From NCBI GenBank assembly GCA_965231905.1, contig CBDDOO010000001.1:324900-388899 (forward strand): a stretch of 64,000 nucleotides of DNA, in the 5' to 3' direction. Made by a program: the position numbers and the translations under genes. This stretch comes from Arenicellales bacterium (GTDB lineage Bacteria > Pseudomonadota > Gammaproteobacteria > Arenicellales > Poriferihabitantaceae). Positions within the stretch are counted from its first letter, which is position 1, and each line of letters begins with the position of its first letter. The notes below the pieces were generated by a model. It was not told the origin of the DNA. It saw only the letters and a program-made list of their open reading frames with translations, and did not search any database. Of this stretch, positions 35,093 to 49,314 are shown piece by piece.

Positions 35093-35737
35093 TTAGCAAT
35101 GGATTTCCCCGGACCGGATTTCCCCGGACTGGATTCTGACTACATCAGCATCGTCCATTTTTTTCAGGGCCATTGCCAGTGAGCCTTCCATATCAATGGC
35201 GCGGCAGGCATCCTCAATCAGGACTACATCGAATCCTTCCGATCGGGCGTCAAGCGCCGACCAGGCCACACAAAAATCCGTCGCCAGGCCAGCCATGAAA
35301 ATTCGCCCGAATCCACGGCCGTGGAGATAACCGGCAAGTCCGGTCGGAGTTGTCTGGTCATTTTCAAAAAACGCGGAATAGGAATCTATTTCCGGTCGAA
35401 ACCCCTTACGGAGAATCAATTCTGTATTCCTGACATCAAGCCGGGCATGGAATGCCGCTCCTGAAGAACCCTGGACACAGTGGTCCGGCCACAAAACCTG
35501 GTCGCCATAAGGCATCCGGATCTGGTCAAACGGGGAATGTCCGGTATGGCTGGACGCGAAGGAGCTATGGTTTGCAGGGTGCCAGTCCTGGGTCAGTATC
35601 CGGTGCTGGAATTTTTCCGAAACTGCGTTGATAACCGGAACAACCGCGTCCCCATCCGGGACTTCCAGCGCTCCCCCGGCGCAAAAATCGTTTTGCACGT
35701 CAATAATCAGCAGGCAATCAGTGTTGTTTGGTATCAT
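35093..35737 (-). CDS. pncA: nicotinamidase/pyrazinamidase (isochorismatase family)
   Basis: LLIIDVQNDFCAGGALEV, TQDWHPANHSSF, GLATDFCV (catalytic Cys). Start at ATG 35737 (MIPNNTDCLLIID). Confidence 0.9.
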   Translation of the reverse strand: MIPNNTDCLLIIDVQNDFCAGGALEVPDGDAVVPVINAVSEKFQHRILTQDWHPANHSSFASSHTGHSPFDQIRMPYGDQVLWPDHCVQGSSGAAFHARLDVRNTELILRKGFRPEIDSYSAFFENDQTTPTGLAGYLHGRGFGRIFMAGLATDFCVAWSALDARSEGFDVVLIEDACRAIDMEGSLAMALKKMDDADVVRIQSGEIRSGEIHC

Positions 35738-35775
35738 TTTGATTTCTGGTATTCGGATACTGTGCCATAATAAAC
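35584..35775. repeat. direct repeat copy A (pncA promoter + first ~50 codons)
   Basis: Aligns by eye with 43304-43502. It contains a ~100-nt near-identical core (GATAACCGGAA...CAGGCAATCAGTGTTGTTT), and homology starts at AGTCCTGGGTCAG in both copies. Confidence 0.85.
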
Positions 35776-35865
35776 TATCAGCAATAATCTTCCAACGCTC
35801 AGCAGACATGACTATTCAAGATTGGCTGTCTCGGCACAATGCCGGGGTCGTGCAGGTATTGTGCC

Positions 35866-36128: not shown

Positions 36129-36374
36129 ATGGCAAGCATAACAATCCGCAATCTTGACGACGACGTGAAGACGCGCCTCCGCGTACGCGCCGCTGAGCAT
36201 CACCATTCGATGGAGGAAGAGGTGCGCATCATTCTGTGCAACGCCGTGAATGGCAGGCAGGACGGTCCCCGGGATCTGGCGAAGTTCACGCGCGAGTGCT
36301 TCGCTCCCCTTGGCGGTGTGCAACTCGAACTCTCTCCACGCGGCCCGATGCGAGAACCTCCTGATTTCTCCTGA
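36129..36374 (+). CDS. FitA/VapB-type ribbon-helix-helix antitoxin
   Basis: MASITIRNLDDDVKTRLRVRAAEHHHSMEEEVRIIL is the typical FitA/StbC RHH N-terminus. Immediately precedes the PIN gene. Confidence 0.85.
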   Translation: MASITIRNLDDDVKTRLRVRAAEHHHSMEEEVRIILCNAVNGRQDGPRDLAKFTRECFAPLGGVQLELSPRGPMREPPDFS

Positions 36375-36384
36375 TGTGGTCTGC

Positions 36385-36834
36385 ATGTTCGCCATAGATA
36401 CTAATGTCGCTTCCGAACTCATGCGCCCGCAGCCGAAGCCCTCCGTCGTGGCATGGATTGCCGAACGTGACGCACAGGAGATGTATCTGACGGCGGTGAG
36501 TGAGGCGGAATTGCGCTATGGCGTCGCGATCATGCCAGCGGGCAGGCGACGAACCACATTGGAGGCCGCCATGATCCGCTGGCTTGATCATGGCTTCAAA
36601 AAGCGGATTCTCCCGTTCGACAGCGCCGCGGCCCGCGCCTACGCAGAGGTCGCGGCTGAGCGCCGCCACGCAGGCCGGCCAATCGGCGAGGCCGACTGCC
36701 AGATCGCCGCTATATGCCGCGCCCGTGGCGTTGTTCTGGTCACGCGCAACCTGCGGGACTTTCAATGTACCGGGATCGAGGTCGTTGATCCTTGGGCGGA
36801 GGTCAGCGCCCCGGAGATCTACCCAGATAGATAA
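36385..36834 (+). CDS. vapC: PIN-domain toxin (VapC/FitB type)
   Basis: MFAIDTNV (first acidic residue), SAVSEAEL, and CQIAAICRARGVVLVTRNLRDF (C-terminal acidic/PIN signature). GTG at 36376 is an alternative start. Confidence 0.85.
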   Translation: MFAIDTNVASELMRPQPKPSVVAWIAERDAQEMYLTAVSEAELRYGVAIMPAGRRRTTLEAAMIRWLDHGFKKRILPFDSAAARAYAEVAAERRHAGRPIGEADCQIAAICRARGVVLVTRNLRDFQCTGIEVVDPWAEVSAPEIYPDR

Positions 36835-37043
36835 CTGAACATGAGGTTCGGGTCTCGGTTCTGTTCGTTCACGCGTATCATCGGTCGTGAGTTTTCGGAT
36901 TATGCTCCGATTCGGACGGGTGCTGGATGAACGAGGCCGATACTTGGTCGTGCTCCTTAGAATTCAAGTCGCCCGCCTGCATTTTGTTAGACAAAGTGGT
37001 GTACTAATTCTGTCTGCTGCAAGACAGATTATTACCCCTGCAA

Positions 37044-40000
37044 TTACAGGGAGCTCAAACCACCTTGGTAGGCAGCTTCCAGCCGTTTCCTGCCTTTTTC
37101 ACCAATACGGCGCATGCCGAGCCATTTGCGCATTTCCACAACTACATCCTCCTGGTTACAGCCACAATCAATAAAGTAGCGGGACATGGCCACGAGTTCA
37201 GACATGGCAACATCTTCTGCAGCACGCTGATGTGAAAATCCATCAACCACACGAAAGCTGTCCCAGTTGGGTGCATCAGCGTTCACCAGCCACACGAATC
37301 GTGTGTCATCTTCCGTGGTAATTTGCAGCCTGTCATTGCTTTTCAGAACTTCACCAAGTACCCGGTTGATCCTGCTGCCTGCACTTTTGAAGCCATGGGC
37401 CTTGGTAATCAATTTGAACAGGACTTCCTCACGAATTGGCTGCTCATGCTGAACGATTTGCTCCATCAGACGAGCGTGTGTAGTGCGGTAGTGAAACTCG
37501 TAAAAACTGTCCTGCTTAAGGTGCAAGTCACTAGAACCTTCACTCCAAGGGATGTACTCACACTTACCCGGTATCTCAGGGGCATCCTCTACCACCTCAC
37601 CAGCAACCTTTTCCCACACCATCTCCTGGGGATCAGCCTTCAAAGAGAGATCATGGTCATCCTCATCCGTACCTGCAAGATTTGTATCAACATCCCCTTC
37701 TGCATTCCTTATCCACTGCTTCGCATCTGTCGCGTTTGCTGCGCCCTCCGAAGGCACTTCATTGTCCTCATCGAAAGACTCCAGCAACTCACGTAACTGC
37801 TGGTCCACATGATTGACACAATCCTCCGGGGCAACCCACCAGTCTGTGGACCAGATTCTCAGAATCTTCCACCCCAGTCCCTCCAGAACTTGCTGGCGCA
37901 GGAAATCCCGGTCACGTGCCGTGGCAGAACGGTGATAAGTCGCACCGTCACATTCGATACCGGCAAGATACATCCCGGCCTTGTCAGGATGAACAACACC
38001 AAGATCAATGCGAAAATCGGACACACCGATCTGGCTGTGAACCATCCAGCCCCGCTCCTCCAGCCGAATCGCAACCTGCTCTTCGAAGGGTGAGTCAAAA
38101 GTTCCCAACGGACGTTCGATCGACTCTCCGATTGCTTTCGCGCCCCGTTTGGCAAAATCCATGAAGTGCTTCATGTCTCTCACACCGGCTGCTGCTGTAC
38201 GGGACAAATCGATATCTTCCGGCTGCATGCTGGAGTAGACATGCATTTCATTGCGTGCACGGGTGATTGCAACGTTCAGTCGCCTTGGCCCGCCGTCCTG
38301 ATTCAAAGGCCCGAAATTCATCGACAAGCGGCCCGAATGGTCCTTTCCGTAGGTCATGGAAAAGTAGATGATCGAGCGTTCGTCCCCTTGCACACTCTCT
38401 ATGTTTTTCACGAAGATGGCCTCAATGTTATCTTCTGCAAAGAAAGGTTCGATCTCGGGGTAATCCCTGCGTGCCTTCTCCAGCAGGTCTTCAATGAGAA
38501 CCTGTTGTTCCTGATTGAAGGTAACCACTCCGATGGTCATGCCCGTTTTTTTGAATTCCGGATCACGCAGCCTGGATACTATGCTGTCGACCACGGCTCT
38601 TGCTTCGGGTTGATTGATCCGGTTGCCGCCTTTCTCATACAGTCCGTCACGAACATGGTGGAACGATACCGCGGTGTCGGTCGTAGCCGGCGACGGAAAA
38701 GTGATTAGCCCACCCCTGTAGTAGTTGTGATTGCTGAAGGTGATGAGAGACTCTTGTCGTGAGCGGTAATGCCACTTCAGTTGATAGGTAGGCAGATTAG
38801 CGCCCATGCATTCATCGAGGATGGATTCCAGGTCTCCAACATCAATATCGCTGTCGTTGTCCTCATCCTCCTGGCGGTTGAAAAATGAGGTCGGCGGCAG
38901 CTGCTTCGGATCACCTACAACAATGGCCTGATTCGCCCTTGCAATAGCCCCAATGGCATCCCATGGCGTGATCTGACTGGCCTCATCAAAGATCACTACA
39001 TCGAAGAACGTCCCCTCAGGGGGCAGGTACTGGGCCACCGACATGGGACTCATCATCACACAGGGAGTGAGCTTGAACAGATTGCTGCCAAGCTTTTCCA
39101 CCAACTGACGCACCGGTATATGACGGCGCTTTTTTTGAATTTCCCGACTGAGCACATGCCACGTCGAGCCTTGCGGAATATGACCACGCGAGGGGATTAC
39201 CTGGCTGAGTTTGGCAAACACGTAGGCTTGGGTAAGTTCCATGAAGTGCTCGTCCAGCTTCACGAAATCCTCAATCGTGCGCACATGCTCGGCGGGCACG
39301 AATTTTCGGATTACATCATCATTGTCCACGGCATGATTCAACCACCAGCGGTGATAGTTCACCCTGAAGGCTTCCTCGGCCGTGTTGCCTGCAAGGGCGC
39401 CTTTTTCAACGGCTTCCACTAATGACTGCATGCCTTTTGCCAAGGCATCGTTTCGAACCCACCGCCAGGCGGTCCAGGCCTTCAGCCTAGGAGCCTGTTC
39501 CAGCCACTGTGCACAAGTATCTATGGTCGTTTGCAAAAACGACTTCTCGTCAGACTTTACATGCAAGTCACCGGTCACGGCAATGGTCGTACCCAGGGAC
39601 AGTTGAGCTGCCTCAAAGGCCTCTAGTGACTGCACGAATGTGTTCGCCGATGTCTGGATCTTACCGCTCGGGCCCAACAGGTCTGTAGACTGAAGCAGCA
39701 TGATCATCGTGGATGTGGCCTCGCGATAGGCCTCTGGTGATGCGAATAGTGCACCCATCACACTTCTTAGCTCATGGCCAAACTCCGCAGCGTGTGTGAA
39801 AAGTGCAGGATCCGTGTGAATACCCTCGAACTTCCTGCCGATGACCTGATCCAAGCCCTTGAGCATCTCAAATGCCGTCCTCGTTTTTTTGGCATTTGAG
39901 AGATGGGCAAGATCGGAGGTGACACCAGAGATTTTCGAGCCCCCAGAAAATGGCTTGAGCCGGGCTTTTACGGCCTTGACACCCAGCCATTTCGCCAGGA

Positions 40001-43000
40001 ACCATTTCTCTTCGGCACTACCCAGTTGCGCCACCAAGCCATCGATATCCAGATCAAGCACGGTTTCCTTGTAGGTCACAACCGTGCTCTTAAATTGCTG
40101 GCGGTAACTTTCGATCAGCTCTGAGCCACGCTCGAGATCAGCAATCAGATCACGGTCCTCTGGGCCGAGCAAGAAGGCGTACGACTGGTTGTATGCCTTG
40201 GGCAGGATGCGCTCAAGGGCTGCAACCATTTGTAGATCACCTCGGCTCATCACCTGAATTGGCAATCCCAAGAGTTTGATCCAGGACTGTAGTGCAGCCT
40301 GCAGGTCCATTGCGGCAGCGTGCAGGTCTTTGGACTGGTCAATGGCACTCCTTTGCCAGGACGGCGACCAGTCGTCAGCTTCGACCCGGTGAAAGCAGCT
40401 CTCGCTGATATCGCCAATTTGCTCGGCATTGGCATCAATGCGCACAGCGATATTTGAATATTCCTCCAGGTTATCCTCGCTGTGCGTCTGATAATCCGGC
40501 CAGTGAAACTCCAGCGGAACTACTACAGGATTGTTGATGACCACGCCGATGGCCTTGAAAATGCTGAGCCCGTTGGGATAGGTTTTGTGGAGTTGCCGGA
40601 CGTAGGCATTGAGGTCTTCTCGCAGGTTCAGCAGGCGCTGGGACTCGCGGTCCCAGTTGGAGATTTTGGGGTGCCTGTTTTGCCACGCATGATCAAGTTG
40701 CTTGATCACATCTGTCTTTCTTGCCTTGCTCGAATGCAACTCCAGGCAAAACTTGCCTAAGCCCACATCACGCAAGCGGCGGTAGACGACATCCAAAGCA
40801 GCCGTTTTCTCGGACACGAACAGTACCTTTTTGCCAATGCCAAGGAGATGGGTGATCATGTTGGCGATCGTCTGGCTTTTACCGGTCCCGGGCGGGCCCT
40901 CAATCACGAAGTCCATGCCTTCGGATGCCGCGATGACGGCCGCCATCTGGGTGCTGTCACAGGACATGGGCAGGTAGGTGTCTTTCGGATGGCATTTCTG
41001 ATCTATCTCCTTCGGGTGCGGGAAGTCGACACCGTCGTTTCCCATATAGGTGTCCCGAGGGGTGTCGATCAGGTGTTTGACCAGGGGCGAGTTCTTGAGA
41101 TATTCAGTGCGTGCATCAAGATCCTCCCACATCAGGTACTTGGCGAAACTGAACGTGCTCAAGACCAAGTCTTCTGAAACTTCCCAACCTTCGATATCGC
41201 GAACATGCTGTCTGACGATGTTCCATATGCCATCCACGTCCAGGCCAGAGTCATCCTTTGGCAACTCCTTGGACAGTTCCGGGATTTCAAGCCCGAAGTC
41301 CTGGCGAAGCATTTGCAGCAGGGTCGGGTTGAACTGCGGCTCATCATCATGGATGCGCAGCTTGAATGCCGCATTCACGGACCTTCTTGAAAGGCTGACC
41401 GGTATCAGGATCAGGGGCGCCCGGTGGGTGCGAGAGCGTTTGTCGGTCTGGGTCCAGTTCAAAAAGCCCAGGGCCAGGTACAGAATGTTGGTGCCGCCTT
41501 CCTCAATCGCAGCCTTCGAGGCCCGGTACAACCCGATCAGCGACGCGCTCAATTGTCGCTGATCGAGTGCCGTGGTAATTCTCCCGTGCCGCATGGCCTG
41601 CAGCACCTGTTCCGCATGCAGGTCCTCCGAGTAACGCCTGCGGTGTTCCTCGCCGCTTCTCGGATCACCGGGGCTGATGACTTTCTCCAAGGGCGAGAAG
41701 GTGAAGACCTGGTCCTCTGCCAACATGTCCTCCAGCTCACCGGAATTTGTACAGATACAGGGTACCGCCCGTTTCGACCGCTTGAAGTTCAATAGCCGGT
41801 TGCGCAAGGACAGATCAAGAAGTTTTCGCTTCCAGTTTTCAACACGCGCGTCGGCGCCCACCGCATCATCCGGGGTGGGGGCATCCGGATATTCCACGTC
41901 CTCGGGCAAGTCACTCAGATCATCCAGGCCTGCATCGATCACTTCATCGACCGAAACATCCTCCTGCCCCGTCTGCGTGACCCGCTCATACAGCGGGCGA
42001 ATCCGGGCAAGGCGGGATTGCTTGATGTCGACCAGCAGCAGGAAGCTGTCTTTATCGAACAGCTTGACATTGGCCTCCTCTCTCGCTTGCTTGAACCTGA
42101 CGGCAGGGCGGTGCGCAACGTAGGTGGTCTCAAATACCAGGATCTCCTTCAGGACGACCCTTTTGCGCAGGGCCTGCAGATCCTCGACCACACTGGCGCT
42201 AAACTCAAGATCCTCCAGCCAGACACCGACAAAGGCATGGCCTTTAGTGAAAATGATCAGGGAATTAAAGCCTGCCTGTTCAAGGGCACCGGCGAATAGC
42301 AGGGTGGAGTCCATGCAGGTGACTAGACGGTGACGCTTCACCTCTTCGGGTAAGCGAATCTTTTGACCGGCATCCTCGAAACTCGCGGGGGGCTCGGCAT
42401 AGGCCAGATCCTGCCTGATGACTGCCGACCAGATGGCATTGACCATCTCACCCACTTTCTTTCGGCTTCTTGACTGGTAGCCATCAAGCTTCAGGTCACG
42501 ACCGGTTCCCTGCAGCACCTTCGCTGCAGTTCGCAGGATTTCCTGTATAAATGGCGAATTCGGTTGCACATAGGCTGCCAGGATTTCCGGCAATTCCTGA
42601 ATCCCGCCCCATTCGTTTCGACTCAGCACCTGCACATCACAAGATAACGTGGCAAGTACTTCATCCCCTGAATTCAATGAGAAATCGTAGGTACCCCGAA
42701 CCGCCTCATTGACATCCTCCAAAAATCCCGGGTTGAGTTCAATCATGCAGTCACGCAAGGATATCTCGGTATCAGGAGCCAGTCGGGTGATATGCCAGAC
42801 CTTGGGTTTGGCAAACCCCGGAGTGGTGGTGACCGTAAGCTCCAGGTCTTGATAGCTGACGTCTGTAGGGTTGTTGAGAACAATGTCCCGAAGAACGGGC
42901 ACTGAGTTTTGCTGGAGTGCCAGATTGACCTTGTGGGCCGCTGCAATCTGGATGGTGATTGCTTTGTTCTCAGTTTCTTTATTGTCTGTCTCTGAATTCA

Positions 43001-43001
43001 T
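37044..43001 (-). CDS. 1985-aa multidomain helicase-nuclease: transglutaminase-like core + DUF4011 + SF1 (Upf1/DNA2-like) helicase + Vsr/DUF559 endonuclease + DUF3320 (Hhe-like defence candidate)
   Basis: TCMDSTLLFAGALEQAG...KGHAFVGVW (Cys 42315-42317, His 42236-42238). KLLDLSLRNRLLNFK (DUF4011 hallmark, ~41781-41825). GPPGTGKSQT (Walker A, ~40870-40899). VIFDEASQI (~38973-38990). RRLNVAITRAR (motif VI). FRIDLGV...GIECDGATYH...ILRIWSTDWW (Vsr/DUF559, ~37830-38110). DUF3320-like tail. Confidence 0.9.
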   Translation of the reverse strand: MNSETDNKETENKAITIQIAAAHKVNLALQQNSVPVLRDIVLNNPTDVSYQDLELTVTTTPGFAKPKVWHITRLAPDTEISLRDCMIELNPGFLEDVNEAVRGTYDFSLNSGDEVLATLSCDVQVLSRNEWGGIQELPEILAAYVQPNSPFIQEILRTAAKVLQGTGRDLKLDGYQSRSRKKVGEMVNAIWSAVIRQDLAYAEPPASFEDAGQKIRLPEEVKRHRLVTCMDSTLLFAGALEQAGFNSLIIFTKGHAFVGVWLEDLEFSASVVEDLQALRKRVVLKEILVFETTYVAHRPAVRFKQAREEANVKLFDKDSFLLLVDIKQSRLARIRPLYERVTQTGQEDVSVDEVIDAGLDDLSDLPEDVEYPDAPTPDDAVGADARVENWKRKLLDLSLRNRLLNFKRSKRAVPCICTNSGELEDMLAEDQVFTFSPLEKVISPGDPRSGEEHRRRYSEDLHAEQVLQAMRHGRITTALDQRQLSASLIGLYRASKAAIEEGGTNILYLALGFLNWTQTDKRSRTHRAPLILIPVSLSRRSVNAAFKLRIHDDEPQFNPTLLQMLRQDFGLEIPELSKELPKDDSGLDVDGIWNIVRQHVRDIEGWEVSEDLVLSTFSFAKYLMWEDLDARTEYLKNSPLVKHLIDTPRDTYMGNDGVDFPHPKEIDQKCHPKDTYLPMSCDSTQMAAVIAASEGMDFVIEGPPGTGKSQTIANMITHLLGIGKKVLFVSEKTAALDVVYRRLRDVGLGKFCLELHSSKARKTDVIKQLDHAWQNRHPKISNWDRESQRLLNLREDLNAYVRQLHKTYPNGLSIFKAIGVVINNPVVVPLEFHWPDYQTHSEDNLEEYSNIAVRIDANAEQIGDISESCFHRVEADDWSPSWQRSAIDQSKDLHAAAMDLQAALQSWIKLLGLPIQVMSRGDLQMVAALERILPKAYNQSYAFLLGPEDRDLIADLERGSELIESYRQQFKSTVVTYKETVLDLDIDGLVAQLGSAEEKWFLAKWLGVKAVKARLKPFSGGSKISGVTSDLAHLSNAKKTRTAFEMLKGLDQVIGRKFEGIHTDPALFTHAAEFGHELRSVMGALFASPEAYREATSTMIMLLQSTDLLGPSGKIQTSANTFVQSLEAFEAAQLSLGTTIAVTGDLHVKSDEKSFLQTTIDTCAQWLEQAPRLKAWTAWRWVRNDALAKGMQSLVEAVEKGALAGNTAEEAFRVNYHRWWLNHAVDNDDVIRKFVPAEHVRTIEDFVKLDEHFMELTQAYVFAKLSQVIPSRGHIPQGSTWHVLSREIQKKRRHIPVRQLVEKLGSNLFKLTPCVMMSPMSVAQYLPPEGTFFDVVIFDEASQITPWDAIGAIARANQAIVVGDPKQLPPTSFFNRQEDEDNDSDIDVGDLESILDECMGANLPTYQLKWHYRSRQESLITFSNHNYYRGGLITFPSPATTDTAVSFHHVRDGLYEKGGNRINQPEARAVVDSIVSRLRDPEFKKTGMTIGVVTFNQEQQVLIEDLLEKARRDYPEIEPFFAEDNIEAIFVKNIESVQGDERSIIYFSMTYGKDHSGRLSMNFGPLNQDGGPRRLNVAITRARNEMHVYSSMQPEDIDLSRTAAAGVRDMKHFMDFAKRGAKAIGESIERPLGTFDSPFEEQVAIRLEERGWMVHSQIGVSDFRIDLGVVHPDKAGMYLAGIECDGATYHRSATARDRDFLRQQVLEGLGWKILRIWSTDWWVAPEDCVNHVDQQLRELLESFDEDNEVPSEGAANATDAKQWIRNAEGDVDTNLAGTDEDDHDLSLKADPQEMVWEKVAGEVVEDAPEIPGKCEYIPWSEGSSDLHLKQDSFYEFHYRTTHARLMEQIVQHEQPIREEVLFKLITKAHGFKSAGSRINRVLGEVLKSNDRLQITTEDDTRFVWLVNADAPNWDSFRVVDGFSHQRAAEDVAMSELVAMSRYFIDCGCNQEDVVVEMRKWLGMRRIGEKGRKRLEAAYQGGLSSL

Positions 43002-43190: not shown

Positions 43191-43457
43191 CTAGATTGCC
43201 TGAACGGGCAGCTCGATAGAATCCCCTGATGCCGTGTCCGATGTGTTGACATTGCATGGCGCTCCTCCAGAGGCGGAATGCCAAAGGTTTCTGAACTTAT
43301 AAAAGTCCTGGGTCAGCATCCGGCGCTGAAATTTTTCCGAGATCGCATTGATAACCGGAAAGACCGCGTCCCCATCCGGGACTTCCAGCGCTCCCCCGGC
43401 GCAAAAATCGTTTTGCACGTCAATAATCAGCAGGCAATCAGTGTTGTTTTGGTTCAT
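43191..43457 (-). pseudogene. pncA: truncated pncA 5' fragment (first ~50 codons, then unrelated sequence)
   Basis: MNQNNTDCLLIIDVQNDFCAGGALEVPDGDAVFPVINAISEKFQRRMLTQD matches pncA, then diverges exactly at the repeat boundary (43304). Confidence 0.8.
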
Positions 43458-43502
43458 TTTGATATTTCAATTTCTGGTATCCGGGGCTATGTCATAATAA
43501 AC
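43304..43502. repeat. direct repeat copy B (pncA promoter + 5' end)
   Basis: Partner of 35584-35775, in the same orientation. Confidence 0.85.
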
Positions 43503-43547: not shown

Positions 43548-44798
43548 TTACTGCCATAGGGCGCTCATCGGCACGGCATAACAATTTTTCTGATTCAGCG
43601 GCAATGTGTTATTGCCACAATAGAGCAGGATACCCCCTTGAAAGTTTTTGCCTGCCTGAGCCGCTAAACGAGCAAGGCCAGTACTGTCTTTCGCTTGAAT
43701 ACTGGCCGTTTTTTTTATCTCTATCCCCCACAGCCGTTTGCGGCGCTCTATCACCAGATCAACTTCCACCTGATCCTTGTCCCGGAAATGACTGAATTTC
43801 AGTTCACTATCCAGCCAACTGGCCTGACAAACAAGTTGCTGCACAACAAAGCTTTCCAGTACCGGGCCGAAATGATTATCATGTTTATTCCAGTCATCCG
43901 CTTTCAGCCCACTCAACGTAGCGGCCAGGCCGGAATCAATCACATGAACCTTGGGGGTTTTGATCAGTCGCCTGGATTGATTACGATGCCAGGCAGGCAA
44001 CCGGCGAACCAGAAACAGGCGCTCGAGTACAGTCAGGTATTTTTCTGCTGTCTCCCGACGCATCTTCAATTCATTGGCTATATTGCTGACATTAAGGAGC
44101 GTACCTGTACGATAGGCCAGCATTTCCATCAAGGCCAGCATTTCTCCTTCATCACGAATTGCGGCTACATCTTTCACATCGCGCTGGATAATGGCATTGA
44201 GGTATTGTCGATGCCATTGTCTGGCTCTGGCTGCAGAACGGGTATTCGGCTCTGGGTAACCACCCTGGCATACGGCCTCGGCGACACCACCAATTACACT
44301 TTGTTCACCGATAACCTGTGGAAAAATATTGCCGCTGAGCATGGCGTCCAGCAGGGAGTTTTCACTGCGATACTTCTCTTGCTCGGTTAATGGGAAGAGA
44401 TTGATTACTTCAACCCTTCCAGCCAGAGATTCCTGTACGCCGGGCAGCAGCAGCAAATTAGCGGAGCCAGTCAACAGGAAGCGCCCTGCGGCCGCTTTGT
44501 GATCAAACCTTTCTTGATCGATACTGGCCTTGATGGCTGGCAGCAGTTCAGGCGCCCTCTGTACTTCATCCAGAATGACTGGTTCTGGCAGGCTCTGGAT
44601 AAAGCCGACGGGGTCTTGTTTTGCTACGGCCAGCAAGGCTCCGTCATCAAAATTGATGTACGTATGGTCAGGGCAATATTTCCTCGCCAGAGTGGTTTTG
44701 CCAACCTGGCGAGCTCCCAGCAAACAGACGACCGGCGTGTCAGCCAGCGCCTCTTGCAGCAAGGGAGCGGCGTATCTCGGGAGTAACGGTTCAGCCAT
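43548..44798 (-). CDS. AAA+ ATPase, AAA_14/DUF4143 family
   Basis: LLGARQVGKTTL (Walker A), VILDEVQ (Walker B), and a C-terminal DUF4143-like region. Confidence 0.85.
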   Translation of the reverse strand: MAEPLLPRYAAPLLQEALADTPVVCLLGARQVGKTTLARKYCPDHTYINFDDGALLAVAKQDPVGFIQSLPEPVILDEVQRAPELLPAIKASIDQERFDHKAAAGRFLLTGSANLLLLPGVQESLAGRVEVINLFPLTEQEKYRSENSLLDAMLSGNIFPQVIGEQSVIGGVAEAVCQGGYPEPNTRSAARARQWHRQYLNAIIQRDVKDVAAIRDEGEMLALMEMLAYRTGTLLNVSNIANELKMRRETAEKYLTVLERLFLVRRLPAWHRNQSRRLIKTPKVHVIDSGLAATLSGLKADDWNKHDNHFGPVLESFVVQQLVCQASWLDSELKFSHFRDKDQVEVDLVIERRKRLWGIEIKKTASIQAKDSTGLARLAAQAGKNFQGGILLYCGNNTLPLNQKNCYAVPMSALWQ

Positions 44799-44911
44799 AG
44801 CGTCCAGATGCCGATTACAGTTTCGTCTGATTGTCGATTATATCAGCGTCCAGATGCCGATTACAGTTTCGTCTGATTGTCGATTATATCAGCGTCCAGA
44901 TGCCGATTACA
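44799..44911. repeat. 46-bp tandem repeat, 2.5 copies, abutting the ATPase start codon
   Basis: AGCGTCCAGATGCCGATTACAGTTTCGTCTGATTGTCGATTATATC at 44799-44844 and 44845-44890, plus a 21-nt partial copy. Each unit carries TATAAT on the gene strand. Confidence 0.9.
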
Positions 44912-44982
44912 ATTCCGTGAGAACACACATTACTGTCAAAACTTTACTGTCAAAACTTATTGACAGAAAAATCAGAAGTTAA

Positions 44983-46178
44983 GGAATCTCTGATTAATCA
45001 GTTTCTATTGTATAATTTTTGTACTTCATACTGACTGGAGATATTTCCGATGCGCCAGAGTACTTTTTCCGAAGCTGGATTTGACAAATACAAGAAACAG
45101 ACGCGCAAGGAGCGTTTTCTGGATGAGATGGAGCAAATCATTCCGTGGGTGGAGTTGAATGCAGTCATCGAGCCTTTTTATCCCAAACCGCAAGGGGCAG
45201 GCCGCAGGCCGATTGGAATAGACCGGATGTTGCGGATTCACTTTCTGCAACACTGGTTCAGTCTTTCGGACCCGGCTGCCGAGGAAGCGTTGTACGATTC
45301 GTTGTCGATGCGCCGGTTTGTGGGCATAGACCTGGGTCGGGAGCCGGCTCCCGACGAGACCACGATCTGCAAGTTTCGTCATCTGATGGAGAAGCATAAC
45401 CTGGGGGAACGATTGTTCGGACTGGTCAATGAATATTTGGGTGAGAACGGACTGAAGGTGAATCGGGGTACGATCGTGGATGCCAGCATCATCTGCGCAC
45501 CGAGTTCGACCAAGAACCGGGAGAAGAAACGAGACCCCCAGATGCACTCGACGCGCAAGGGGCAGCAATGGTACTTTGGTATGAAGGCGCATATCGGTGT
45601 GGACAGTCGCAGCAAGCTGATTCATTCGGTGGTGGCTACGCCGGCGAATGTTCATGATTCACAGGTTCTGCCGGAACTTCTGCACGGGAAAGAGACCCGT
45701 GTATGGGGAGACTCGGCCTATACGGGTCAGAAGGCGGTGATTTCACAGGTAGCGCCGGAGGCGAAGGATTTCACTCATTCGAAGGGGACGCGCTACCGCA
45801 AATTGACGGAGAAGGAGCGCTTGAAGAATCGAACCAAGTCCCGGATACGGTCGAAGGTGGAACATCAGTTCGGTATTCTCAAGCGGCAGTTCGGTTTTAC
45901 CCGGGTTCGTTACCGGGGGCTGGAGAAGAACACGCATCGACTGGTTGTGGCCTGTGCCTTAAGCAATCTGGTGATGGCGAAGAAAGTACTGTTGAGACAA
46001 AGGCGGTTGAAACTGCAGGCTACGTACGCCTGAAAAATGAAAAGAGGGGGAGAATGCTTGTATTTCCCCGCTCCCGCTCACTGATTCCGGGCCATTCTGT
46101 CTTTCAGACCCACTCATATCCCGGATTTACAAAAATGACTACCCAAAATCCCCAAAACTCGTATTGTTCAGACTTTCC
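44983..46178 (+). mobile_element. IS5-family insertion sequence (1196 bp) with 4-bp TTAA target-site duplication
   Basis: IRL is GGAATCTCTGA (44983-). IRR in reverse complement is GGAAAGTCTGA (-46178). TTAA is present at 44979-44982 and 46179-46182. Single IS5-type transposase. Confidence 0.85.
45050..46033 (+). CDS. IS5-family transposase
   Basis: 327 aa, closely resembling E. coli IS5 InsH from memory (FLDEMEQIIPW, RMLRIHFLQHWF.LSD, DAS.I.APSSTKN, GDSAYTGQ, VEH.FG.LKRQFGF.RVRYRGL.KN). Confidence 0.95.
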   Translation: MRQSTFSEAGFDKYKKQTRKERFLDEMEQIIPWVELNAVIEPFYPKPQGAGRRPIGIDRMLRIHFLQHWFSLSDPAAEEALYDSLSMRRFVGIDLGREPAPDETTICKFRHLMEKHNLGERLFGLVNEYLGENGLKVNRGTIVDASIICAPSSTKNREKKRDPQMHSTRKGQQWYFGMKAHIGVDSRSKLIHSVVATPANVHDSQVLPELLHGKETRVWGDSAYTGQKAVISQVAPEAKDFTHSKGTRYRKLTEKERLKNRTKSRIRSKVEHQFGILKRQFGFTRVRYRGLEKNTHRLVVACALSNLVMAKKVLLRQRRLKLQATYA

Positions 46179-46317: not shown

Positions 46318-47514
46318 ATGAACATGAAAAGAGCAATCACACTGGCGGCATCAATCACCCTTCTGGCTCCTGTATTCACTGTCCAGGCGGACGGATGGGA
46401 GCAATATAATCCGGACGGATGGGCGCAATATAATCAATTAGGCTGTTGGGCGAGTGTAAGCCAGCAAGCCTGCTTTGCAATGGCAACATGGAACAATGAC
46501 TATATGTACGGCGGCGAAGGCAATGACATCCTGATCGGAGGCGCGGGCAATGACTGGCTGGATGGCGGCGATGGGGATGACTCCCTGCACGGCAGTATAG
46601 GAAACGACAGGCTGGGCGGAGGTGATGGCAATGACCACCTGTACGGCGGCGATGGGGATGACTCCCTGCACGGAGGCGCGGGCAATGATTTGCTACGTGG
46701 CGGCGCGGGCGATGATACCCTGTATGCTGGCGCGGGGGATGATGATAGCGCCATGGTAGCCACCATGGTGGACATTGACACAGCGGAGGAACCAATAGTT
46801 ATTGTTGGTTATCATAACTCCCTGGACGGAGGCGATGGCAATGACACCCTGCACGGAGGCGATGGCAATGACCTCTTGGACGGCGGCGATGGGGATGACC
46901 GCCTGTACGGACGCGAAGGCCATGACTTCGTGATCGGAAGTTATGGCAATGATTATCTGATCGGATATAAAGGAGATGACACCCTGCACGGAGGCGATGG
47001 CAATGACCGCCTGTACGGAGGCGAAGGCAATGATTATCTGACCGGAGGCCATGGCCATGACTACCTGAACGGAGGTTATGACGATGACCGCCTGAACGGA
47101 GGTTATGGCAATGACCGCCTGTACGGAGGTTATGGCAATGATTATCTGTTCGGAGGCCCAGGCAACGACCGCCTGAACGGCGGCGAGGGCAACGATTGGA
47201 TACTCGGAGGCAGTGGCAATGACAAATTGGCCGGTAATGCCGGCTCGGACTTCATGAGTGGCGGGGACGGCGCGGATACCTACAAACTACGCGGGAACCG
47301 CAAAAACCGCAAAGACCGCGATATTATCCTTGCTGATGAAACCGACAATATCGCTGATCAATTCAGCAACAAGGCTTTGGATCGTATCAACATCAACGAT
47401 GTCACTCTGCCAAGTATCGAGATCGGGGGACGGACATTTACGCTGGACGCGAGCATTCTGGCTGACCATGCCCACCGGGTAACCGGCGCGGATATTATCT
47501 ACCGGAAGCCGTGA
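46318..47514 (+). CDS. RTX (hemolysin-type Ca-binding nonapeptide repeat) protein with N-terminal signal peptide
   Basis: About 25 GGxGxDxUx repeats (GGAGNDWLDGGDGDDSLHG...). N-terminus MNMKRAITLAASITLLAPVFTVQA. Confidence 0.85.
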   Translation: MNMKRAITLAASITLLAPVFTVQADGWEQYNPDGWAQYNQLGCWASVSQQACFAMATWNNDYMYGGEGNDILIGGAGNDWLDGGDGDDSLHGSIGNDRLGGGDGNDHLYGGDGDDSLHGGAGNDLLRGGAGDDTLYAGAGDDDSAMVATMVDIDTAEEPIVIVGYHNSLDGGDGNDTLHGGDGNDLLDGGDGDDRLYGREGHDFVIGSYGNDYLIGYKGDDTLHGGDGNDRLYGGEGNDYLTGGHGHDYLNGGYDDDRLNGGYGNDRLYGGYGNDYLFGGPGNDRLNGGEGNDWILGGSGNDKLAGNAGSDFMSGGDGADTYKLRGNRKNRKDRDIILADETDNIADQFSNKALDRININDVTLPSIEIGGRTFTLDASILADHAHRVTGADIIYRKP

Positions 47515-48486: not shown

Positions 48487-49314
48487 ATGACTGACGACAT
48501 AGCGGCCATGAAGCTCTACCATCAGGTAGACCGGGTATTCAATGAGTTGGACTCCCTCGGGATCAAGGATCAGGACCCGGTCGATGTATCCGTGTTGAGC
48601 GCTTATGATCAATACCATTATCTGGGCACCGATGCCGTGGATGAGGCGATTGAAAAGCTGAATATCAGTTCAAACATGGAAATCATGGAAATCGGTTCTG
48701 GAATCGGTGGCCCGGCGCGCTATCTTGCACATACTTCCGGGTGCAGGGTGACTGCTCTGGAACTGCAACCGGAATTGAATGCCACGGCGATGAAACTGAC
48801 AGCCCGTTGTCGCCTCCAGGACAAGGTGACCCATCTGTGCGGCGACATACTTGATGGCCCTCCAGAGAACAGACAATATGACGCGCTGGTCAGTTGGCTT
48901 ACCTTTCTGCATATTCCCGACCGCCCCGCTCTCTACCGAAACTGCTTCGCCGCCTTGAAGCCCGGTGCCGGCCTCTATGTTGAAGATTATTTTGAGCGCA
49001 ATCCCCTGAGCGATCAGGAGAAACAGGTATTGAGCCGGGAAGTCCACTGTGACCGTGTTCCGACTATGGCTGAGTATTTTGATGAGCTTTGTGAGGCGGG
49101 ATTTACCCGAATCGGGCTGGTGGACAAATCAGCCGAATGGACCCGGTTTGTCGTCGAGCGGCAATCCGCCTTCGAAAATGCCAGGGAGCGCAACGAAGAC
49201 CTGCACGGGAAAAAGATCGTGAATGGCCTGTCGGAGTTTTACAGCGCCATTGTCAATCTGTTTACGGCCGGGAATCTCGGCGGAATCTGCTTCACGGCCT
49301 GGAAACCCGGATAA
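48487..49314 (+). CDS. class I SAM-dependent methyltransferase
   Basis: EIGSGIGGPARYLA (motif I), acidic end of beta-2 (VTALELQ), and DALVSWLTFLHI (motif post-II/III). Confidence 0.85.
   Translation: MTDDIAAMKLYHQVDRVFNELDSLGIKDQDPVDVSVLSAYDQYHYLGTDAVDEAIEKLNISSNMEIMEIGSGIGGPARYLAHTSGCRVTALELQPELNATAMKLTARCRLQDKVTHLCGDILDGPPENRQYDALVSWLTFLHIPDRPALYRNCFAALKPGAGLYVEDYFERNPLSDQEKQVLSREVHCDRVPTMAEYFDELCEAGFTRIGLVDKSAEWTRFVVERQSAFENARERNEDLHGKKIVNGLSEFYSAIVNLFTAGNLGGICFTAWKPG

Follow-up and report, generated by a model that had tools for sequence, protein, structure and literature searches.

The window, a stretch of 64,000 nucleotides from an Arenicellales bacterium, contains a gene for a protein of 1985 residues belonging to the catalogued ProA family. 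The protein is an ordinary member of that family, and the transglutaminase-like (TGL) module at its N-terminus is a standard part of the family. The explanation that best accounts for the results, to which a probability of about 0.8 is assigned, is that this proA-type gene encodes a stand-alone, mobile helicase-nuclease directed against phages or other mobile elements, that the protein is a paralogue of the Hhe protein (the Hhe system is reportedly due to Gao et al. 2020), that the gene is cargo of a small island at the pncA gene, and that it acts by the mechanism proposed below.

Family assignment and domain order

An earlier note on this DNA had described the gene as a single-gene, Hhe-like helicase-nuclease with the order DUF4011, superfamily 1 (SF1) helicase, Vsr-like nuclease and DUF3320 behind a transglutaminase-like Cys-His core. 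The open reading frame (ORF) was unbroken in the ORF list and began with ATG. All of the motifs quoted in the note were present in the translation (TCMDS at residue 228, KGHAFVGVW at 253, LSLRNRLLNF at 397 and GPPGTGKS at 702), and Pfam agreed with the order given. The protein is predicted to consist of a beta-sandwich, a TGL Cys-His domain, an acidic linker, DUF4011, an SF1 helicase with an insert of approximately 560 residues, an MTES_1575 nuclease and a DUF3320 region, as follows (pLDDT is the per-residue confidence of the AlphaFold2 models).

37044..43001, minus strand: proA-type gene, predicted single-gene helicase-nuclease defence protein (ORF; NCBIfam ProA equivalog, 2189.6 bits; PADLOC PDC-S37, 1304 bits)
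42627..42956, minus strand: N-terminal Ig-like beta-sandwich, residues 16-125 (AlphaFold2 pLDDT >90, all-beta; Foldseek)
41997..42614, minus strand: predicted transglutaminase-like (papain-fold) domain, residues 130-335, with Cys229, His255 and Glu291, and also Asp231 and Asp274 (AlphaFold2, Foldseek, conservation)
41832..41984, minus strand: acidic linker, residues 340-390 (pLDDT 50-67, no secondary structure; rich in Asp, Glu and Pro)
41307..41825, minus strand: DUF4011, residues 393-565 (Pfam PF13195, 162.6 bits, profile 1-158 of 158)
40722..40952, minus strand: N-terminal part of SF1 helicase domain 1A, residues 684-760, with Walker A GPPGTGKS (Lys708) (Pfam AAA_19, AAA_30, AAA_11)
39042..40721, minus strand: insert of about 560 residues between Walker A and Walker B, residues 761-1320 (low conservation)
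38226..39041, minus strand: remaining helicase core, residues 1321-1592, with Walker B DEAS (Asp1339, Glu1340), GDPKQLPP, QGDER and VAITRA (Pfam AAA_11, AAA_12)
37794..38087, minus strand: Vsr-like PD-(D/E)xK nuclease (MTES_1575 restriction endonuclease), residues 1639-1736, FRID...IECDGATYH (Pfam PF18741, 120.8 bits, full length)
37047..37511, minus strand: DUF3320 region, residues 1831-1985 (Pfam PF11784, 37.9 bits, residues 1831-1879)

The family was assigned with the curated models of NCBIfam release 20.0 and with PADLOC. The protein matched NF058533.1, 'anti-phage protein ProA', with 2189.6 bits, residues 26-1965 aligning to the whole model (1-1903 of 1903); the curated equivalog cutoff is 1500 bits. 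The Hhe_antiphage model (NF042953) gave 882.3 bits in four separate stretches, under its cutoff of 2000 bits. In PADLOC, for which no curated cutoff is shown, the best model was PDC-S37 with 1304 bits (model 8-1531 of 1550), and the match to Hhe (PDLC02194) was partial, with 605 bits, below that to PDC-S37.

In order to locate the matches, six fragments of the protein were scanned one by one against the ProA, Hhe and PDC-S37 models. The ProA model matched all six, and residues 1-390 alone gave 381 bits over model positions 1-363. The Hhe models of NCBIfam and PADLOC matched the DUF4011, helicase and nuclease regions with 120-340 bits per fragment and, in these scans, matched neither residues 1-390 nor the DUF3320 tail. 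The PDC-S37 model begins at DUF4011 and left residues 1-390 unmatched in the same scans. Diverse relatives, among them a protein of a Klebsiella IncFIB plasmid, proteins of Telluria and of a BD1-7-like metagenome-assembled genome (MAG) and a variant of 2391 residues, scored 2100-2350 bits on ProA and approximately 830-890 bits on Hhe. Since both the fragment scans and the scores of the relatives favour ProA, the protein is, as judged by sequence comparison, a typical ProA member and a paralogue, not an orthologue, of Hhe. The description as Hhe-like is thus right in that the protein is a related single-gene helicase-nuclease and wrong as a statement of orthology (882 against a cutoff of 2000 bits, compared with 2190 bits on ProA), and the TGL module, which the earlier note had raised as a possible part of Hhe proteins, is unmatched by the Hhe models and integral to that of ProA (1-363, 381 bits). 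The clusters in which the relatives fall bore no name more specific than 'DUF3320 domain-containing protein' or 'very-short-patch-repair endonuclease'.

The helicase was recognized by Pfam SF1 families in two blocks, Walker A families at residues 684-756 and AAA_11 and AAA_12 at residues 1332-1590. A sequence search of the PDB returned IGHMBP2, Sen1, Upf1/Nam7 and DNA2 as the nearest solved structures, with IGHMBP2 and Upf1 matching the N-terminal part of domain 1A and Sen1 and DNA2 the remaining core, and the Upf1/DNA2-type label of the earlier note is therefore correct. The protein has the Walker A and Walker B motifs and the sequences GDPKQLPP, QGDER and VAITRA, with helicase motifs III, V and VI among them, as well as the nuclease blocks FRID (Asp1666) and IECDGATYH (Glu1683, Asp1685 and His1690). 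In a set of 121 homologues all of these were conserved to 97% or more. A weak Pfam match to DUF559 (23.6 bits) lay over the MTES_1575 nuclease. The least conserved regions were the insert between Walker A and Walker B (mean column conservation 0.44-0.6), matched by the ProA and PDC-S37 models, partly by the Hhe models and by no others, and the C-terminal approximately 230 residues. In giant MTES_1575-type proteins, DUF3320 overlaps two winged-helix (wHTH) domains (PMC3710099). Scans for promoters and terminators around the proA gene gave matches at chance level only.

The N-terminal beta-sandwich and Cys-His domain

The N-terminal module was found in all of the 120 best homologues, at 40-50% identity, and Cys229, Asp231, His255, Glu291 and Thr293 were invariant in the 121-sequence alignment. 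A Pfam scan of residues 1-390 of the window protein matched no family. Residues 1-390 were modelled with AlphaFold2 from a 22-sequence alignment, giving a pLDDT of 86 and a predicted TM score (pTM) of 0.83. The model comprises an all-beta sandwich (residues 16-125), an alpha/beta domain (residues 130-335) and the acidic linker, predicted at low confidence, that leads to DUF4011. A Foldseek search with the whole 390-residue model returned mostly Ig-like sandwiches, such as CARDB 3idu (TMt 0.65) and UNC119. Chains of transglutaminase 2 and factor XIII were among these matches, the domain aligned within those chains not being reported.

Since the whole-model search was uninformative on the Cys-His domain, residues 128-345 were modelled alone (pLDDT 89). 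The PDB matches listed by Foldseek for this model belonged almost wholly to the TGL superfamily, each match being weak (E values of 3.6e-3 to 0.5, TM scores of 0.3-0.4). They included S. pyogenes TglA, yeast and mouse PNGase, the cysteine protease CPR-C4, 3isr and 3kd4 (both putative cysteine proteases), LapG, PeiP and PeiW, and further TgpA, Rad4/XPC, menin, vasohibin and proteins of ciliary doublet microtubules. In the AlphaFold2 model, helix 229-242 begins with Cys229 and strand 255-261 with His255, and Glu291 lies just past strand 287-290. TGL domains are defined by this topology, with the Cys at the N-terminal end of a helix and the His on a strand (PMC3495828). Comparison by sequence gave faint signals: the Pfam family DUF553 ('transglutaminase-like domain') matched 9 of 22 homologues with a best E value of 0.002 and Transglut_core matched 2 of 22 with a best E value of 0.08, and a profile of the N-terminal alignment matched nothing among the PDB sequences at E values up to 10.

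To determine the spread of the module, its profile was run with HMMER against all 1.84 billion cluster representatives (50% identity). Matches with an E value of 1e-3 or lower numbered 6753, and 1958 of these had an E value of 1e-30 or lower. Among the best 149 representatives, 80 have at least 1600 residues, and in nearly all of these the module lies no more than approximately 130 residues from the N-terminus; another 46 are shorter than 1000 residues. The shorter ones are assumed here to be mostly fragments from metagenomic contigs. In the comparison with these best 149 representatives (mutual identity at most 50%), Cys229 and His255 were conserved in 150 of 150, and residue 291 was Glu in 138 and Asp in 11 of the 149. 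Asp274, which has a PNGase-like spacing, was considered as an alternative third residue of a triad. A few representatives have Ser or Asn in its place, whereas every one has an acidic residue at position 291.

Since the fold, the topology and the conservation agree, a TGL-like fold for the N-terminal Cys-His domain is supported by the model, weakly in each match and consistently across the matches. The structure prediction of the N-terminus, recommended in the earlier note, and the conservation of Cys and His favour its proposal of a transglutaminase-like core, with TGL-type topology in the models at pLDDT 86 and 89 and the two residues present in 150 of 150. As read from the alignments, all three enzymatic modules of the protein retain their predicted catalytic residues.

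The pncA locus and the distribution of ProA

The earlier note had also made the gene the main cargo of a 'pncA island' and taken this position to support a defence role. The island is real, because a 93%-identical copy of the 5' end of pncA, lying at 43304-43502, forms with the intact gene the two ends of a bracketed segment, and the neighbourhood, with the pncA repeat, a VapC gene, PDC-S01 and an IS5 element nearby, is of a defence type. The features of the region other than proA are as follows.

35093..35809, minus strand: intact pncA, nicotinamidase/pyrazinamidase (NF008623, 201 bits against a cutoff of 174)
35584-35775, minus strand: direct-repeat arm, the 5' end of intact pncA (repeat families D1, D7 and D14)
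36129..36834, plus strand: VapC (PIN) toxin gene with putative upstream antitoxin ORF (Pfam PIN, 54.8 bits)
43304..43502, minus strand: displaced copy of the 5' end of pncA with sequence upstream of it, about 190 bp, the other repeat arm (93% identical)
43548..44798, minus strand: AAA_14/DUF4143 ATPase, 416 residues, PDC-S01 match (Pfam; PADLOC PDLC04790, 515 bits, full length)
45050..46033, plus strand: IS5-type DDE transposase (Pfam DDE_Tnp_1, DUF772)
46318-47514, plus strand: RTX-type calcium-binding repeat protein, 398 residues (RTX toxin/serralysin repeat matches far under their cutoffs)

The two arms form a direct repeat 7720 bp apart that includes approximately 50 bp upstream of pncA, and an 88-residue ORF at the pncA remnant retains the first 40 or so residues of the isochorismatase domain. 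The bracketed segment of 7.7 kb contains a 94-residue ORF, vapC with its putative antitoxin ORF, and proA. The vapC gene is convergent with the 3' end of proA and matches the NCBIfam VapC models below their cutoffs; the 81-residue ORF upstream of vapC, which has no family match, is a putative antitoxin gene by its position. An integrase-mediated island was considered, but no integrase was detected in or beside the bracketed segment, where the small ORFs are also without family matches. The duplication may have come about by integration with a replacement 5' end or by recombination. The PDC-S01 ATPase, IS5 transposase and RTX protein genes lie immediately beyond the segment, and the ATPase gene, directly upstream of proA, is a second candidate defence gene of the islet on the strength of its PADLOC match.

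The nearest named relative is a Candidatus Poriferihabitaceae MAG (L006), whose ProA shares 93% identity with that of the window and whose flanks show synteny at 87-91% identity. This genome appears to lack part or all of the vapC region, the match stopping at 36491 and window positions 36492-37035 being unmatched, and it also lacks the pncA remnant, having a single copy of the repeated sequence, and a 5.4-kb segment with the PDC-S01, IS5 and RTX genes. Copies of ProA with 78-85% identity were found at unrelated chromosomal loci in other gammaproteobacterial MAGs, where their neighbours are OLD/TOPRIM, SMC-like and NOV_C genes in one case, TerB-DnaJ and HSDR_N genes in another, and a Fic gene, downstream of csrA, in a third. 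A more distant ProA member adjoins a HepT/MNT toxin-antitoxin pair downstream of guaA.

Since a megablast of the proA gene against plasmids gave no match, a search at the protein level was needed. This search gave 511 plasmid records with a match (243 from Klebsiella, 108 from Ralstonia and 41 from Acinetobacter), 68 of which cover at least 80% of the query. The copy on the Klebsiella IncFIB plasmid is flanked by the insertion sequences (IS) IS110 and IS5. Because copies occur at varied loci, on plasmids and beside IS or toxin-antitoxin genes, the distribution fits a gene that would move horizontally as a single-gene cassette rather than a core gene.

Several further observations were made in these regions. 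The gammaproteobacterial MAG locus with the 85%-identical ProA (L001, 17761-23554) has, approximately 1.8 kb from it, OLD-like TOPRIM/AAA_15, SMC_N/AAA_23 and metallophosphatase genes that are Gabija-, Lamassu- or SbcCD-like, with NOV_C nearby, in a larger defence island. In the window, three tandem 46-bp units, of which two are identical and the third 70% identical, lie at 44799-44936 directly upstream of the start of the PDC-S01 ATPase gene, overlapping the best promoter-like match of the region (TTGTAA-18-TATAAT, 10/12). The RTX protein gene sits between the IS5 transposase gene and a 226-residue ORF that has no family match. A gene for an S-adenosylmethionine-dependent methyltransferase at 48487-49314 on the plus strand gave a weak partial match (58 bits) to mad2 of the PADLOC MADS system; since the syntenic relative has also kept this gene, which lies outside the island, the match is probably generic methyltransferase similarity. 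The G+C content of the window is patchy, with 0.58-0.63 at approximately 11-23 kb and 56-58 kb and 0.47-0.54 at 1-10, 43-49 and 60-64 kb; that of the proA gene (0.51-0.57) is not a strong outlier.

Proposed mechanism, alternatives and known systems

In the proposed mechanism, a small island that inserted at the 5' end of pncA would have brought the gene in as its cargo. Nucleic acid would be engaged by the DUF3320/wHTH tail and by DUF4011, as expected from their families, and the Upf1/DNA2-like ATP-driven motor would translocate in the 5' to 3' direction on nucleic acid that becomes single-stranded and accessible while a phage or plasmid replicates. The helicase would then pass foreign DNA or replication intermediates to the fused Vsr-like nuclease, which would cut them. 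The TGL domain may be enzymatically active through its Cys-His-acid site, most likely as a peptidase, and could sense or cleave a phage or host protein or gate the nuclease. For the paralogue Hhe, a phage knockout screen reported that several class II DNA-metabolism genes of T7 and g40 of Bas63 act like triggers, and that expression of g40 was toxic only in cells with Hhe (bioRxiv 10.1101/2024.10.10.617714). These results suggest that Hhe is activated by a consequence of phage DNA metabolism, not by a single protein.

A number of points weigh against this explanation. A full-text literature search did not find a paper introducing the name ProA, its matches being to the ProA of proline biosynthesis and the ProA protease of Legionella, and consequently anti-phage activity would follow from the name of the NCBI model and the candidate status of the PADLOC model. 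A DUF4011 gene flanks the hotspot cDHS1 in every P. aeruginosa isolate and is a core gene there; some relatives may therefore be something other than mobile defence genes. The predicted TGL fold was supported by Foldseek matches that are weak one by one (E 3.6e-3 to 0.5, TM 0.3-0.4), the window protein gave no match to Pfam Transglut_core or DUF553 at E values up to 10, and two residues, Glu291 and Asp274, are candidates for the third position of the putative triad. Finally, the mechanism is inferred as regards its substrate (DNA or RNA), its polarity, its trigger and its outcome (direct restriction or abortive infection).

That the protein is an Hhe orthologue with merely an added N-terminal domain is scarcely credible. 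It would agree with the rank of Hhe as the second-best defence model in both libraries (605 bits in PADLOC, 882 bits in NCBIfam) and with the DUF4011, SF1 helicase and Vsr-like nuclease common to both proteins, but the NCBIfam score is under the curated cutoff (882 against 2000), those of ProA and PDC-S37 are far higher, and the Hhe models extend to neither residues 1-390 nor the DUF3320 tail. Moreover, the match to DUF4011 starts at approximately position 113 of the NCBIfam Hhe model, which therefore has no space for a module of 360 residues. A role as a housekeeping helicase-nuclease of DNA repair or RNA quality control (Upf1-, DNA2- or Vsr-like), not as an immune gene, is judged very improbable. 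The nearest solved structures by sequence are IGHMBP2, Sen1, Upf1 and DNA2, Vsr is a repair nuclease, the DUF4011 gene is core in P. aeruginosa, and in several genomes the gene sits among housekeeping genes. These considerations are outweighed by the near-identical copies at different loci in related MAGs, the frequency of the family on conjugative and mobilizable plasmids and beside IS elements and toxin-antitoxin modules, the location of the window copy inside a repeat-bracketed insertion, and the full-length matches to curated defence models.

A third alternative retains the ProA assignment and holds that the TGL domain is catalytically inert, a module for binding peptide or DNA or for oligomerisation as in Rad4/XPC or Cyk3. 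Rad4 and menin, which are inactive TGL-like folds, were among the Foldseek matches, no Pfam TGL model was over threshold, and inactive TGL domains serve as peptide binders (PMC3495828). The triad is usually lost in inactive TGL domains, whereas here Cys229 and His255 were conserved in 150 of 150 and residue 291 was always acidic in very divergent representatives, a pattern which argues for chemistry and makes an inert domain unlikely. A more specific form of the preferred reading, of an active helicase-nuclease with an active TGL domain, is put forward tentatively, as a possibility held at well under even odds: the domain would be an active peptidase or deamidase and serve as a second effector or a proteolytic switch, cleaving a phage protein or the protein's own acidic linker and thereby freeing the nuclease. 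If true, ProA would be a protease-gated SF1 helicase-nuclease, a type of gating for which no experimental report was found in the literature searched, and the pairing of beta-sandwich and TGL domain would resemble that in animal transglutaminases and ciliary C2-TGL proteins, a likeness that could stem from common descent or from convergence.

For annotation, the results indicate that the gene is to be named as a ProA-family gene, not as Hhe, and that the N-terminal module is to be described as a beta-sandwich followed by a predicted transglutaminase-like Cys-His-Glu domain. What the locus itself adds is one more small defence islet located at a metabolic gene, this time in a genome resembling that of a sponge symbiont. 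Because the family is large (6753 representatives of the module and 511 plasmid records) and the Cys-His-acid site is invariant, the role of the TGL site is a worthwhile biochemical question.

Compared with known systems, the window protein is the same as the ProA model NF058533 from end to end, including the TGL module, DUF4011, helicase, nuclease and DUF3320 tail; it shows no structural difference, and its source is an uncultured gammaproteobacterial lineage associated with sponges. It shares with Hhe the single-gene organization, DUF4011, an Upf1-like SF1 helicase with a large insert and an MTES_1575/Vsr-like nuclease, whereas the Hhe models are without both the beta-sandwich and TGL module and the DUF3320 tail. 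With PDC-S37, a single-gene phage defence candidate, it shares everything from DUF4011 through DUF3320, the PDC-S37 model being without the TGL module. With TGL and papain-fold enzymes it shares a Cys that opens a helix and, on strands further along, a His and an acidic residue, but the likeness is remote only, with 9-19% identity among the top 50 Foldseek matches. The Cys-His spacing in PNGase is roughly C-27-H, and the C-26-H of the window protein is close to it.

The fusion of transglutaminase, helicase, Vsr and wHTH domains, which the earlier note had thought possibly new, is already known. Anantharaman, Makarova, Burroughs, Koonin and Aravind described in 2013 giant proteins that combine a HEPN domain, a transglutaminase-like peptidase, an SF-I helicase, a then novel restriction endonuclease of the Vsr family that takes its name from MTES_1575, and two wHTH domains, and proposed that they act independently of DNA modification, that the wHTH domains recognise invading DNA and that the transglutaminase domain cleaves protein as a further line of defence (PMC3710099). 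The window protein shares with these MTES_1575-type giants the TGL domain, SF-I helicase, Vsr endonuclease and DUF3320/wHTH region in one polypeptide. It differs at the N-terminus, where the giants have a further domain, a HEPN RNase, and the window protein has the beta-sandwich, consistent with the Pfam scan of the window protein, which matched no HEPN family, and with the AlphaFold2 model, in which residues 16-125 are all-beta.

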